Assembly (NCBI GenBank): GCA_964016885.1
Contig: OZ024758.1
Span: 5,952,001 to 6,016,000 of the forward strand
DNA length: 64,000 nt
Source: Eledone cirrhosa
Taxonomy: Eukaryota
Direction of reading: 5' to 3'
Below the pieces are notes generated by a model. The model worked only from the letters and a program-made list of their open reading frames with translations, was not told the DNA's origin and ran no database searches. The translations under genes were made by a program, and so were the position numbers. Below, piece after piece: positions 52,730 through 62,948 of this stretch. Numbering within the stretch: the stretch's first letter is position 1; every line of letters begins with the position of its first letter.

Positions 52730-54110
52730 TATATTCGTGTACAGATATTTTTGCATACACAATAACAAAATATAAACAAACGTATTTATTTCACGAGGCT
52801 TGATAAGGATAAATATATATCAAATATATAAGAACCCTAGAGCAAATCCCCATCAACGCCGGGTCATTCTGCTAGTATTCACTAAAACATGACTCTCCCA
52901 ATGTTTGGAGCGACATTTTCCTAAAATTCGATGCCTAATCACGTGATATTCCCCAAAAAATCAAAATCCCTGCACACGAAGAATGAATATAAGCATAGAT
53001 ATAGATTCGCACACATATGTATTTGGTATTGAATATATTTCACATACTTCGATTTACACATATCTCTATTTACTAAAATATATATAATATTTCTTTTCAG
53101 TTTTCAAGAGAGCAACACCAAAACCAACGCCAACCACAAATGGAACAAGTAAGTACACAATAAGGATGTATGTGTATCACATTAGACAAATGGTCTCTGG
53201 TATAATCTTGAGGTTAACTTTAGCTTCTGAACGAAATATATACTAATAAATTTACTAAATCACACTACCGTAAGATGGTTTGTGGCAACTACCGTATTTC
53301 CCGACGTCGAAGACGCTACTTTTTTCCTAAAATAAGTCTCAAAAATTTAAAATGCATCCTGAAGGCCGAAGGTTGTTTATTATTTTTTTCAAGGCGGTGG
53401 ATTGGCAGTATCGGTAGAGGGTCGGACGCCATGCTTTCCAGCATAGTTACGTCCCTTTACGATTTGAGTTCAAATCCTGCCGAGGTTGACTTTGCCTTTC
53501 ATCCTTACGGGGTCGATAAAATAAAGTACCAGTAATGCACTGGGTAATTGCTGGCCTTGTGCCTAAAGTAGAAACAATTATTTTTTTCAATTTTTGGCTG
53601 TCAAAATTAGGATGCGTCCTCGAGGAATACGATATATCATTGCCACACACTAGTGGAATGAATTCAGGAAATAGAGAATGAATTCTGATAGAGATTTAAT
53701 AGTGTAGTGGTAATATTGAATCAATTATTTAGGATTATCAATATATATATATATATATACAATACATAAATAGAGAAAACCTTAAGCGATACTCCGACCA
53801 ATTCCATCTCACTCAACAAACATTAGGATATACTTAAGTATTATCCCAATTTAGTGTTTGGGGTGCTAACTAATCAGTATTTCGTGGATAGTTGGTTGTA
53901 TTATTTTATATGAGACATTATTAAATAAATATCTCTTTCCTTCCAGACGGCCATTTCGTTATAAGATTTCTACAATTTGGGATAAATAATTTCCAGGGTA
54001 TGTAGAAACTTGTATATAATCCGTAGCGGGCTCATAAACTCATCAGTGGATGCCCAAATTAATATCGATATAAGAATTATATCGACATTAATAGAATGGT
54101 GATGGCCTCC

Positions 54111-54179
<69 letters not shown>

Positions 54180-54648
54180 CATGTTTTTTACATGTTACAA
54201 TACAACACAATAGGAGGGAACATGATAATAGTATATATATATATTTATATCTGTATTTTTAAACGATGGTCAGTCAATGATAAACATTGATTGCCAAATA
54301 AATTAACTATGGAGATATAAAAGATACAGAAGCGAAAAAACCAACCAAACAGTGTGTTTTTTTTGCTTGTCATTTTTTTCTTGTGCTTTTTGCTTTTACT
54401 TTTACTTACACTTCCAACCAGTGCTGCCTGTAATTGTGTTATTTCAAGCGGAACATCTTTTTAACTCCTGAATCTCCACATGATGCCTTTGACACTAATA
54501 ACAACTATGTACCCTAAATGTTCTAAATGACTAGGATTCTTGTTACACGTTTTCGACATTCCTTATGCTCCGATGATTCCAGACTTCCCTCTGGAAGAAA
54601 CAATTGCCAGCTAATAAATGTTCTAAACTAAAATTTGATCGTTTTAAC

Positions 54649-54702
<54 letters not shown>

Positions 54703-61100: not shown

Positions 61101-62472
61101 TCCTCCGGGAAAAAGTCTTCTCCATTTTGTCTGCAGGGGCTGAGGGGAGGCCAGTACGTGGGACCCCATTTGCTCACCATACAGAGAGATGGGGAGGGCG
61201 AGAGAGATGGAGGCGATGACAGTGGGAGTTCGGCTCTTCTACGTTCGGACCATATCCTTGTGGTCGTTTTTATCATCTATATAGAAAATTATTTGTCATT
61301 AACCGTCTCTCTGTCGTCTTGAAGTCTTTTGGTTTCACTTGGAAGATTAACATCTTGAGGTTAACTTTAGCTTCAGAATGAAATATATACTAATAGGTTT
61401 ACTAAATCACACCACTATAAGATGGTTTATGCAACTATATCATTGCCATACAATATATGCTAAGTGGAATTTCGGAAACAGACTATTCTCATACAGATTT
61501 AGTAGAGTTGCGGTAATATTGAACACATTATTTAAGGTTTTCAAAATATGTAGTGACATCATGTCAGCAGACGATTGGTGTATATAGGAATACACATATA
61601 TTCACACTCATATGTATTTGCTATTGTATATATACACATACTTCGACTTACACATATCTCTATTTACTAAAATATGGCATTTCTTTCCAGTTTTCAAGAG
61701 AGCAATGCCAAGCCTTGTGCCACGCTTAAATGATAAAGGTAAGTACACGACAATGTACTGACAGACACACACACACACATGTATATATTTGGGAAAAGTA
61801 AATAAAATAAAGAAAAATGTAACAATTTACTTAGAATGTCCCTGCTGCAGTTTCATTGAGTAAACATCAGGACTGAGTGCTGCGAATGCGTATGTATGTA
61901 TGTATGTATGTGCTACTGGTAGCATGTATCCCTGTACAACCTGACTCATGGTCGGGTCGCTGGCGACTAAACTGACAACCTCACCCAGGTTTCTTGGTGA
62001 CGAGGGTGACTTTGGACATCCTGCAGGACTAAAAACCTGTCAAAGGGCAAAGGAGCTCTTAAGAGTCAATGGCATTCCAAAATCAAGAGATGACCCCTTA
62101 GCCTTTGTCAAGGCAACTCTGATGGTATCCAATATTGTTGACTTGTTCTTTTTGGTAAATATCATCTTGGTGAAGAGAGTGGGACTGGCTTTGTGCAGTG
62201 CCTTTGCTCACTATAAAAGCTTCACAGTACAGGCATTGCTTTATATCTGGAGATCTCTCTGCACTTGTCGTCACATGGTACCATGGGCCCAGCACTATGT
62301 GTCAATAATTGTCACAGGTGTAGTGTTTGTACCAGAGTTTTCAAGTCGCTGGCTGGACTAAAAAGTCACATTCGTTCAGCGCATCGGTAGGGGTTCTCCT
62401 ACATGGATATAAAGTAGTGGCCGTACTCGAAAACGAGTTGGCAGCCACCATGTATGTATGTATGTATGTATG

Positions 62473-62521
<49 letters not shown>

Positions 62522-62948
62522 TGTTGACTAGTTGTTTGGGGGTAGTGTTTTCGATGCTCAGAGATTGGGAGTATTCGAGTGCAAGGCCTTTATCCACTTG
62601 AAAAACCTTCAAAGCACAGGCATTGCTTGTTCAGGATCTGTTACAGGTTCGTGGGCCTAGCTGTAGCCTAAAAGTTCAAGAAACTCTATAATCTGACAAG
62701 CGGTTGCAATACTATTAGCAATACTATTAGCAAAGTTTTCAGCCATGATGTAGATTATGATAGATATCAACTATCAGCAGACGATTGGTGTATATAGGAA
62801 TACACATATATTCACACTCATATGTATTTGCTATTGTATATATACACATACTTCGACTTACACATATCTCTATTTACTAAAATATGGCATTTCTTTCCAG
62901 TTGACAACAGAGCGGTGCCAAGCTCATTGGGAGGCTTAAATGATAAAG
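46980..62948 (+). CDS. Unrecognised secreted protein encoded by a tandem micro-exon array (11 exons seen, 3' end beyond window)
   Basis: All exons are GT-AG and phase 1. They join stop-free to [157 protein letters not shown] (157 codons + 1 nt). Confidence 0.85.
47588..47732. mobile_element. Fold-back/MITE element, same family as 52486-52614
   Basis: agagtgggtaatatgaaaagattc ... gaatcttttcatattacccactct imperfect inverted arms. Confidence 0.75.
48370..48510 (+). mobile_element. CRE-like fragment; further + copies at about 36060-36200, 59065-59250, 61068-61255
   Basis: [42 protein letters not shown], homologous to the 51130-51490 element but in the opposite orientation. Confidence 0.78.
49161..49193 (+). 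CDS. Micro-exon gene exon 2: signal peptide C-part ([11 protein letters not shown])
   Basis: tttttctatttcag acceptor, AG|GTAAAT donor, 33 nt, completes the hydrophobic core. Confidence 0.75.
50582..50626 (+). CDS. Micro-exon 3 ([15 protein letters not shown]), 45 nt
   Basis: Shared upstream flank (tacttcgatttacac...ctatttact), tag acceptor, GTAAGTACACG donor. Confidence 0.82.
51130..51490 (-). mobile_element. CRE-like non-LTR retrotransposon 3' end (restriction-like endonuclease C-terminus)
   Basis: [25 protein letters not shown]...[20 protein letters not shown] resembles the KY...AVET.G..G...QRISLAI.RGNA signature. Confidence 0.8.
52124..52391. mobile_element. MITE with about 90-bp terminal inverted repeats
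   Basis: tagtat...aaaacgaaaaatcagtgatgcatctggactcagttta mirrored at 52298-52391. Confidence 0.85.
52486..52614. mobile_element. Loopless palindrome, fold-back/MITE family
   Basis: Centre at 52550/52551 (ggactaaa|tttagtcc), about 64-bp arms; shares gagctcagccgtcggggtcct...tattacccactct with the 47588-47732 element. Confidence 0.8.
53101..53148 (+). CDS. Micro-exon 4 ([16 protein letters not shown]), 48 nt
   Basis: ttcttttcag acceptor, GTAAGTACAC donor, shared flanks. Confidence 0.87.
53292..53633. mobile_element. Mariner-like MITE interrupted by a tRNA-derived SINE (about 53392-53580)
   Basis: ccgtatttcccgacgtcgaagacgc ... gcgtcctcgaggaatacgat; inner SINE with B-box GAGTTCAAATCC. Confidence 0.6.
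53941..54050 (-). ncRNA. Type I hammerhead ribozyme motif with palindromic loopless stem III and long stem-loop II
   Basis: Minus strand TCCA-CTGATGA-gtttatgag...cttataac-GAAA-TGGCCG-TC-TGGA; GUC triplet; inner hairpin tttctaca/tgtagaaa in loop II. Confidence 0.7.
54796..54840 (+). CDS. Micro-exon 5 ([15 protein letters not shown]), 45 nt
   Basis: tttttttttcag acceptor, GTAAGTACACG donor. Confidence 0.83.
54919..55213. repeat. Perfect palindrome, 143-bp arms, 9-nt loop
   Basis: 54919-55061 is the reverse complement of 55071-55213; loop gtttgctct. Confidence 0.95.
55390..55782. repeat. AT-rich minisatellite (tatatatatctatttactataa)n
   Basis: Variable 18-26 bp units just upstream of micro-exon 6; a shorter version precedes micro-exon 5 (54695-54780). 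Confidence 0.9.
55797..55838 (+). CDS. Micro-exon 6 ([14 protein letters not shown]), 42 nt, NAGNAG acceptor
   Basis: tttttcCAGTAG acceptor, AG|GTAAGTACACG donor. Confidence 0.83.
55940..56945 (+). mobile_element. RTE-clade LINE 3' fragment (RT C-terminus plus C2H2 zinc fingers), frameshifted
   Basis: [12 protein letters not shown]...[17 protein letters not shown]...[20 protein letters not shown]...[19 protein letters not shown]; downstream [25 protein letters not shown] fingers. Confidence 0.92.
57620..57655 (+). CDS. Micro-exon 7 ([12 protein letters not shown]), 36 nt
   Basis: tttctttctag acceptor, GTAAGTACACG donor, shared flanks. Confidence 0.84.
58182..58600. mobile_element. Nested fold-back element
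   Basis: tattagtatt(g/t)gtgctctgaaatagc occurs twice directly and once inverted; tatttggcaatataccgtatgttta is mirrored; internal hairpin ttttcggcaaagg/cctttgccgaaaa. Confidence 0.65.
58951..58998 (+). CDS. Micro-exon 8 ([16 protein letters not shown]), 48 nt
   Basis: atttctttccag acceptor, G|GTAAGTACACG donor. Confidence 0.88.
59426..60498 (-). mobile_element. Possible solo LTR (about 1.07 kb)
   Basis: Minus strand begins TGTAGCG and ends TGTCA, TATA-like tatatatag near 60360; it interrupts the conserved intron unit; no clean TSD. Confidence 0.45.
60955..61002 (+). CDS. Micro-exon 9 ([16 protein letters not shown]), 48 nt
   Basis: Same acceptor and donor flanks as micro-exon 8. Confidence 0.88.
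61691..61738 (+). CDS. Micro-exon 10 ([16 protein letters not shown]), 48 nt
   Basis: atttctttccag acceptor, AG|GTAAGTACACG donor. Confidence 0.88.
61913..62450 (-). mobile_element. Interspersed element bounded by (TATG)n; copy at 63197-63785, inverted fragment at 42744-42880
   Basis: Near-identical copies, each delimited by (CATA)n/(TATG)n on both sides. Confidence 0.7.
62901..62948 (+). CDS. Micro-exon 11 ([16 protein letters not shown]), 48 nt
   Basis: 127 nt upstream flank identical to that of micro-exon 10; same donor. Confidence 0.88.

Follow-up and report, generated by a model that had tools for sequence, protein, structure and literature searches.

A candidate secreted micro-exon gene in the octopod Eledone cirrhosa, with dibasic sites inside duplicated exons

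The micro-exon genes of schistosomes, whose micro-exons are defined as exons of at most 36 nucleotides (nt) (PMC8293314), are described in the excerpts of the two reports considered here as restricted to flatworms (PMC4350168, PMC8293314). Skin precursors of pipid frogs are reported to give peptides that span two tandemly duplicated exons (PMC3899252), and precursors of the cuttlefish oviduct gland are described as being cut at dibasic sites into unlike peptides (PMC3484142). Here we examine a locus of the octopod Eledone cirrhosa in a 64,000-nt stretch of DNA (assembly GCA_964016885.1, contig OZ024758.1, forward-strand positions 5,952,001 to 6,016,000; hereafter the window, whose own numbering is used unless another sequence is named). 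The locus contains an array of exons of common origin that carry an open frame and dibasic pairs, and that differ from one another far more than their introns do. A preliminary description of the window had proposed that Lys-Arg (KR) pairs at the start of some of these micro-exons mark a modular peptide precursor. A cleaved modular precursor is the best reading of the locus, and has gained support; the fuller proposal of a secreted gland polyprotein with a micro-exon-gene design, cut by convertases at KR and Arg-Arg (RR) into a variable set of peptides, stands in our estimate at about even chances.

Each of the 21 internal exons of the predicted gene (exons 2 to 22) is of phase 1-1 and measures a multiple of three, between 33 and 57 nt (51 nt or less in 19 of 21, 36 nt or less in 2 of 21). 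Twenty of them (exons 3 to 22) are paralogous phase-1 micro-exons of 36 to 57 nt, in seven length classes that are all divisible by three, and judged by their sequence they are genuine coding units, because none of the 20 has an in-frame stop, whereas 28 of 40 off-frame readings have one. These frame-preserving exons arose by repeated copying of one exon-plus-flank unit. All exons named in the preliminary description have AG/GT ends and a common donor motif; nine exons with this motif lie at 50582-62948, and two exons upstream (46980-47010 and 49161-49193) encode a hydrophobic N-terminus. The window holds only half of the predicted gene, the remainder of which runs about 25 kb further downstream: a further 11 micro-exons (exons 12 to 22) are present in 80 kb starting 2 kb inside the window end. 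The predicted features are:

46980-47010, plus strand: coding part of exon 1, from the ATG through the first half of the predicted signal peptide, with a phase-1 donor; occurs once in the genome
49161-49193, plus strand: exon 2, 33 nt, in which the predicted signal peptide ends; single copy
50582-50626, plus strand: exon 3, 45 nt, the first of the paralogous micro-exons; E-K replaces K-R
53101-53148, plus strand: exon 4, 48 nt, starting F-K-R-A-T-P; NGT sequon
54796-54840, plus strand: exon 5, 45 nt, lacking a dibasic pair
55797-55838, plus strand: exon 6, 42 nt; NET sequon
57620-57655, plus strand: exon 7, 36 nt, S-N-R-P; N-R replaces K-R
58951-58998, plus strand: exon 8, 48 nt, starting V-K-R-A-M-P
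60955-61002, plus strand: exon 9, 48 nt, F-D-E-L; D-E replaces K-R
61691-61738, plus strand: exon 10, 48 nt, starting F-K-R-A-M-P; identical to exon 13
62901-62948, plus strand: exon 11, 48 nt, D-N-R-A; N-R replaces K-R
62949-64000, plus strand: intron 11, the part up to the window end
contig C19 6016236-6020590, plus strand, beyond the window: exons 12 to 16, with R-R-S-K-R in exon 12, R-R-S-K-P in exon 15 and F-K-R-T-M-P in exon 16
contig C19 6023034-6036060, plus strand: acidic exons 17 to 22, exon 17 with Q-K-R
6039336-6039643, plus strand: probable last coding exon (23), 94 open codons, with the stop 21 nt ahead of a GTGAGT donor
from 6041109, plus strand: candidate exon of the 3' untranslated region (UTR), with AATAAA at 6041283

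The firmest result of the analysis is the excess of exon over intron divergence. Between exons 8 and 9, 23 of 48 nt differ, compared with 8 of 370 in the flanks; for exons 10 and 11 the counts are 12 of 48 nt and, in the flanks, 13 of 747. In 13 of 17 exon pairs, which are not independent of one another, the exons have diverged more than the flanking introns (p < 0.01), by ratios of 3.9 to 27.5; the four exceptions are the newest copies (10/13 and 12/15), the pair 4/7, and the pair 7/9, which is uninformative with nine aligned columns. The contrast ends at the splice sites: in five pairs of the KR family, the adjoining 24 bases on either side contain no more than 1 mismatch. Codon models for seven 48-nt exons give a ratio of nonsynonymous to synonymous substitution rates (omega) of 2.3-2.9, with the best value at about 2.8 and twice the log-likelihood gain over omega = 1 equal to 5.4 (p of about 0.02), and those for five acidic exons give 1.0-2.2, with twice the log-likelihood gain at 2.3, which is not significant.

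The KR pairs are where the preliminary description placed them, at the start of exons 4, 8 and 10, and the paralogous positions of exons 9, 11 and 7 lack them, as it had reported. Exons beyond the window add KR in exons 12, 13, 16 and 17 and RR in exons 12 and 15, so that the 298 residues of exons 3 to 22 without exon 20 contain 7 KR, 2 RR, 0 KK and 0 RK, where shuffles average 1.9, 1.4, 2.35 and 1.9, respectively. Convertases favour KR and RR. When a single F-K-R exon is retained, KK and RK are still absent from the remaining 13 exons, and the probability of at least three KR with no KK or RK is 0.0065, by a test picked after the data were seen. The junction codon ahead of exons 4, 8, 10 and 13 specifies I, L, V or F whichever exon lies upstream, because these exons start with TT or TC; a hydrophobic junction residue is thereby guaranteed for four of the five F-K-R-type exons, an argument qualified by the TT start of four KR-less exons (11, 14, 20 and 21). 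Exons 12 and 15 are set apart by 2 of 57 nt, both differences replacing residues and one of them creating R-S-K-R; because K-P stands in exons 9 and 15 in the place of the K-R of exon 12, the R-X-K-R site is probably a gain of exon 12. R-X-K-R is the furin motif.

If all nine sites were cut, the fragments ahead of the acidic block would measure 20, 55, 30, 34, 1, 10, 34, 13 and 23 residues. Most of the predicted fragments start with X-X-P and have hydrophobic ends (IF, LV, VF, ML, LF, ML and PF), the only features shared across fragments of 10-55 residues; those derived from the repeats are near neutral (net charge -4 to +3) and Pro-rich. The 30-residue peptide offered as an example in the preliminary description is reproduced by splicing exons 8, 9 and 10 in order.

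The spliced model without exon 20 encodes 415 residues in the order signal peptide, Pro-rich and basic middle (net charge +11), acidic block (-20 without exon 20, -24 with it) and a K/R/N-rich basic block in the last exon (+23). The chain had been described as Cys-free and rich in Pro and Thr, which is true of exons 3 to 11 (0 Cys, 14 Pro and 12 Thr in 135 residues) but not of the full model, which has 2 Cys, none of them in exons 3 to 16. NGT in exon 4 and NET in exon 6, likewise reported earlier, are the only N-glycosylation sequons of the model. The protein is predicted to be secreted by way of an N-terminal signal peptide, a call made by hydropathy alone: N-terminal nine-residue windows reach 3.3, and the later maximum of the 19-residue mean is 0.44. 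Just upstream, at 46920-46966, a TATA-like TATTTAAA is followed by GTAAGT and a pyrimidine-AG that together span only 18 bases directly before the ATG; either a 5' UTR exon lies further upstream or transcription starts at 46920-46966.

Several features bear on how these exons could be combined. Exons 13 to 15 are a recent block copy of exons 10 to 12. Skipping among exons 2 to 22 never yields a stop codon, and the 5 of 253 exon-to-exon junctions that create one all lead into exon 23. Exon 20 (L002:8114-8161) is an intact open exon of 48 nt whose acceptor reads CAC instead of AG; an AG ending 15 nt inside it keeps the frame, and another ending 8 nt inside breaks it. DNA contigs of one sample, possibly the assembly's own and so not independent, cover exons 7, 8 and 9 with 0 differences. 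In searches of the 3.0-Gb assembly, an exon flank used as query gave 13 matches, all on contig C19 within 30 kb, and exons 1, 2 and the last exon matched at their own locus only. By these searches the exon array is one single-copy gene; paralogous genes elsewhere were considered and rejected, as an exon-like run occurs on C19 only and the other matches are scattered and near the control count.

A number of observations weigh against cleavage, or against the signs of selection associated with it. The five KRs of the F-K-R type are one site inherited from a single ancestral exon and do not count independently; with a single F-K-R exon retained (13 exons, 199 residues) the excess shrinks to 3 KR against 0.88 expected (p = 0.049). 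On the unrooted exon tree (4,((8,16),9),(10,(11,14))), which was built from seven 48-nt exons (exon 13 being dropped as identical to exon 10, and exons 7, 12 and 15 excluded for their length) and is concordant with the grouping of the downstream introns, KR is most simply ancestral and lost in exon 9 and in exons 11/14. The pair has therefore gone in at least two lineages, and probably in exon 7 as well. The KR codons require five nucleotide steps on this tree, and 17% of column pairs require as few or fewer, so among the paralogous exons they show no significant extra conservation over other columns. Purines make up 87% of nt 6-11 over all 20 exons, compared with 60% of the exons as a whole; since the KR position is purine-rich throughout, E-K, E-E, N-R and K-R interconvert easily, and a splicing constraint or inheritance could explain KR. 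None of the 9 sites has an amidation Gly ahead of the basic pair, and the predicted products accordingly include no amidated peptides. The basic tail is no more amphipathic than its shuffles (p = 0.43 and 0.66), and an amphipathic helix was rejected on these values. Searches found no homologue or orthologue, a weak negative in that the queries were pieces of exons and not the whole spliced protein. As to the divergence, the proportion of synonymous differences among exons is about 0.1-0.3, above the intron level, so intron gene conversion probably adds to the contrast, and recombination between exon copies can inflate omega. The sharpness of the contrast nevertheless makes the locus a compact test case of positive selection versus intron gene conversion.

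The same purine bias, lack of significant KR conservation and absence of amidation signals suit the main rival, that of a disordered structural or adhesive protein secreted whole: a polyampholyte of mucus, glue, egg coat, spermatophore or mineral matrix, in which KR, inherited and not a programmed cut, follows from the purine richness of the exon start, itself perhaps a splicing enhancer. Blocks of opposite charge would favour self-assembly, two N-glycosylation sequons are present, and the products of flatworm micro-exon genes are described, in the part of the report considered, as secreted or membrane-anchored proteins (PMC4350168). An uncut chain leaves the lack of KK and RK (about 4.3 expected) alongside nine KR or RR pairs, the hydrophobic residues that precede those pairs and the apparent R-X-K-R gain in exon 12 to be accounted for, and we consider it possible rather than probable. 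If uncut, the product would be an orphan, fast-evolving secreted protein of moderate interest. The proposal of a modular precursor thus gains from the choice of KR and RR over KK and RK and loses from the weak conservation of KR, its purine-rich setting and the missing amidation Gly. Its corollary, that gain or loss of KR together with exon skipping could reshape the peptide set, agrees with the losses, with the probable gain in exon 12 and with stop-free skipping, less so with the F-K-R sites being a single inherited feature.

How the gene ends bears on two other readings. Three candidates for the last exon were compared, of which two are unique in the genome (the 94-codon frame and a short exon that carries a poly(A) signal); the third, at L003:3983, was rejected as a high-copy repeat (42 matches listed, 680 candidates). 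The basic exon of 94 codons, the best of the three, is probably the last coding exon: its frame is open in the right phase with p = 0.0008 (5000 dinucleotide shuffles, uncorrected for the choice among candidates). This exon might itself be the payload, a cationic peptide of antimicrobial, membrane-active or venom-gland type, the micro-exons being a variable pro-region that is cut away. An acidic block directly precedes a basic block of equal charge size, the open frame is in phase and made of unique DNA, and a layout of signal, acidic spacer and antimicrobial peptide is described for frog skin precursors (PMC3899252). We nevertheless hold a cationic payload to be improbable: the tail forms no amphipathic helix, its many internal basic pairs would fragment it, no Pfam family and, with its residues 1-60 as query, no homologue was found for it, and a disposable spacer fails to explain omega above 1 in exons 4 to 16.

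Alternatively, the 3' end may be mis-modelled or the gene unexpressed, the micro-exons being either the front of a downstream gene, which we take to be calmodulin-like from its EF-hand pattern, or a silent duplication array. Exon 22 would join in frame to a 144-nt phase-1 EF-hand exon 27 kb downstream. That gene, however, has a phase-0 upstream exon of its own, with two TGACGTCA sites ahead of it, and a closer unique in-frame exon offers a stop and then a poly(A) signal, so that the array is unlikely to belong to the calmodulin-like gene; stop-free frames argue against a silent array, and we give the two versions together very little weight.

Searches for relatives also bear on the kind of precursor. 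A profile of the exons (11 rows, ten exons) gave 0 of 4134 candidates at E <=10; residues 1-60 of the last exon, compared with longer proteins, gave 0 of 64 candidates at E <=1; and the last exon matched no Pfam family and had no usable match in the Atlas. The sole profile match among 1.84 billion representatives (E 1.3e-4), a repetitive protein of 1038 residues, was rejected for want of visible likeness. No description of the gene was found in the literature by title, a weak negative given that supplements and subscription cephalopod gland proteomes could contain it. A precursor of classical neuropeptides or hormones, directed at receptors of the animal itself, would have a signal peptide, dibasic sites and peptides with shared X-X-P starts and hydrophobic ends, all of which are predicted here. 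Neuropeptides are usually conserved, though, and this locus combines rapid diversification with no amidation and no repeated conserved active core. Searches with pieces of its exons also found no homologue, whereas the neighbouring FUN14-family protein (an intronless frame of 136 residues at 38407-38814, plus strand) is 91% identical to its Octopus bimaculoides counterpart and 82% to that of Argonauta hians (3 matches among 6 candidates). The locus is probably not a classical neuropeptide precursor; as an explanation we would assign this one only a slim chance.

Under the preferred reading of a cleaved modular precursor, a gland cell would splice the exons as modelled and make the chain, which the signal peptide would send into the secretory pathway before being removed; a prohormone convertase would then cut at KR and RR within that pathway. 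The products would be peptides of 10-55 residues, comprising short Pro-rich ones, a 55-residue piece with two sequons and, in addition, an acidic-basic end piece, whose acidic block may mask the equally charged basic tail until release. Each KR exon would act as a cassette: it would close the upstream peptide with a hydrophobic end, provide the cut site and open the next peptide with X-X-P, so that peptide borders would be redrawn by point mutations (K to N, P to R) and perhaps by the skipping of exons. The peptide set would vary through exon duplication and through point mutations in the cut codons, with exon skipping as a possible further source. The targets of the products may be prey, microbes or mates, reached outside the animal or at its body surface; action of this kind would account for the diversifying selection. 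A bolder version, which we regard as doubtful, is that of a splicing-programmed peptide library, in which the octopod gene arrived at the micro-exon design of flatworms on its own and equipped it with skip-proof cassettes for convertases; exon choice and single-codon gain or loss of KR would then set the sequence and borders of secreted peptides under diversifying selection. If true, this would let a single gene diversify a peptide secretion in a new manner, with cut sites inside exchangeable exons, and would be a source of undescribed cephalopod peptides overlooked by gene finders and homology searches.

The surroundings of the gene offer further observations. The FUN14-family frame can serve as a synteny anchor for locating orthologues. 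On the minus strand, 24184-24504 and 25872-26168 are exons of a PCI-complex subunit gene, the first with a Pfam RPN7 match, which we take to be COP9 signalosome subunit 1. At 55784-56554 the frame of exon 6 continues through the intron into a fragment that by eye is retrotransposon-like and has no Pfam match, giving 256 open codons in total; retention of this intron would make a fusion. Long inverted repeats within introns, at 54939-55193 and about 58200-58560, resemble miniature transposons, the second being high-copy. Two uniform tandem arrays with 97% matches lie at 27252-28082 (23 nt x 36.1) and 32028-33355 (42 nt x 31.6), the latter in two open frames of at least 450 codons. Downstream, from L001:9700 to L003:1990, a short AT-rich element upstream of the acceptors of exons 18, 19 and 22 has grown into minisatellites of kilobase size; ahead of exon 19 there is apparently a higher-order repeat of 1.1 kb. 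The calmodulin-like gene (L005:4362-4440, L005:8705-8848 and L006 1-3000) has an unusual N-terminal exon, and 142 kb contain no TGACGTCA palindromes other than the pair at L004:9748 and 9789, which lie 41 nt apart.

Faster divergence of coding exons than of the introns next to them is a feature of conotoxin genes and of snake-venom phospholipase genes. That contrast is between gene copies, whereas in the octopod it is between exon copies within one gene, which has no Cys scaffold.

The pipid precursors hymenochirin, magainin and CPF, as far as they are described in the source, share with the octopod model a signal peptide, an acidic spacer, tandem exon duplication and peptides that span two exons, as well as identical repeats in one gene and suspected alternative splicing (PMC3899252). 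Their repeats are reported to measure 138-147 nt, to encode antimicrobial peptides and to be under purifying selection (PMC3899252), whereas the octopod fragments are Pro-rich and diversifying. Cationic amphipathic mature peptides of the pipid type are not predicted from the octopod gene, given fragment charges of -4 to +3 and the shuffle test on its tail (p = 0.43 and 0.66). SP-alpha along with SP-alpha' and SP-beta of Sepia officinalis are likewise cephalopod secreted precursors of a few hundred residues with dibasic cuts; compared by description, their products are unlike peptides of 1-8 kDa, some of them N-glycosylated (PMC3484142). The Sepia officinalis peptides are described as Cys-rich and partly amidated (PMC3484142), in contrast to the octopod model with its 2 Cys and no amidation signal.

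The schistosome micro-exon genes, as characterized in the parts of the reports considered, share with the octopod gene a signal peptide, mostly small symmetric coding exons, repeat-rich introns, a raised dN/dS (here an omega of 2.3-2.9 in seven exons) and the lack of a recognisable homologue (PMC4350168, PMC8293314). Measured against the schistosome definition (PMC8293314), only 2 of the 21 exons, which range here from 33 to 57 nt, are within 36 nt; in further contrast to the schistosome genes (PMC4350168, PMC8293314), the octopod exons are copies of one ancestral exon and carry dibasic sites, and the host is a free-living mollusc and not a flatworm. The octopod gene, known here from genomic DNA alone, is thus an analogue of the schistosome genes in design and not a member of their group, and if the model is true, secreted micro-exon genes extend beyond the flatworms to an octopod.

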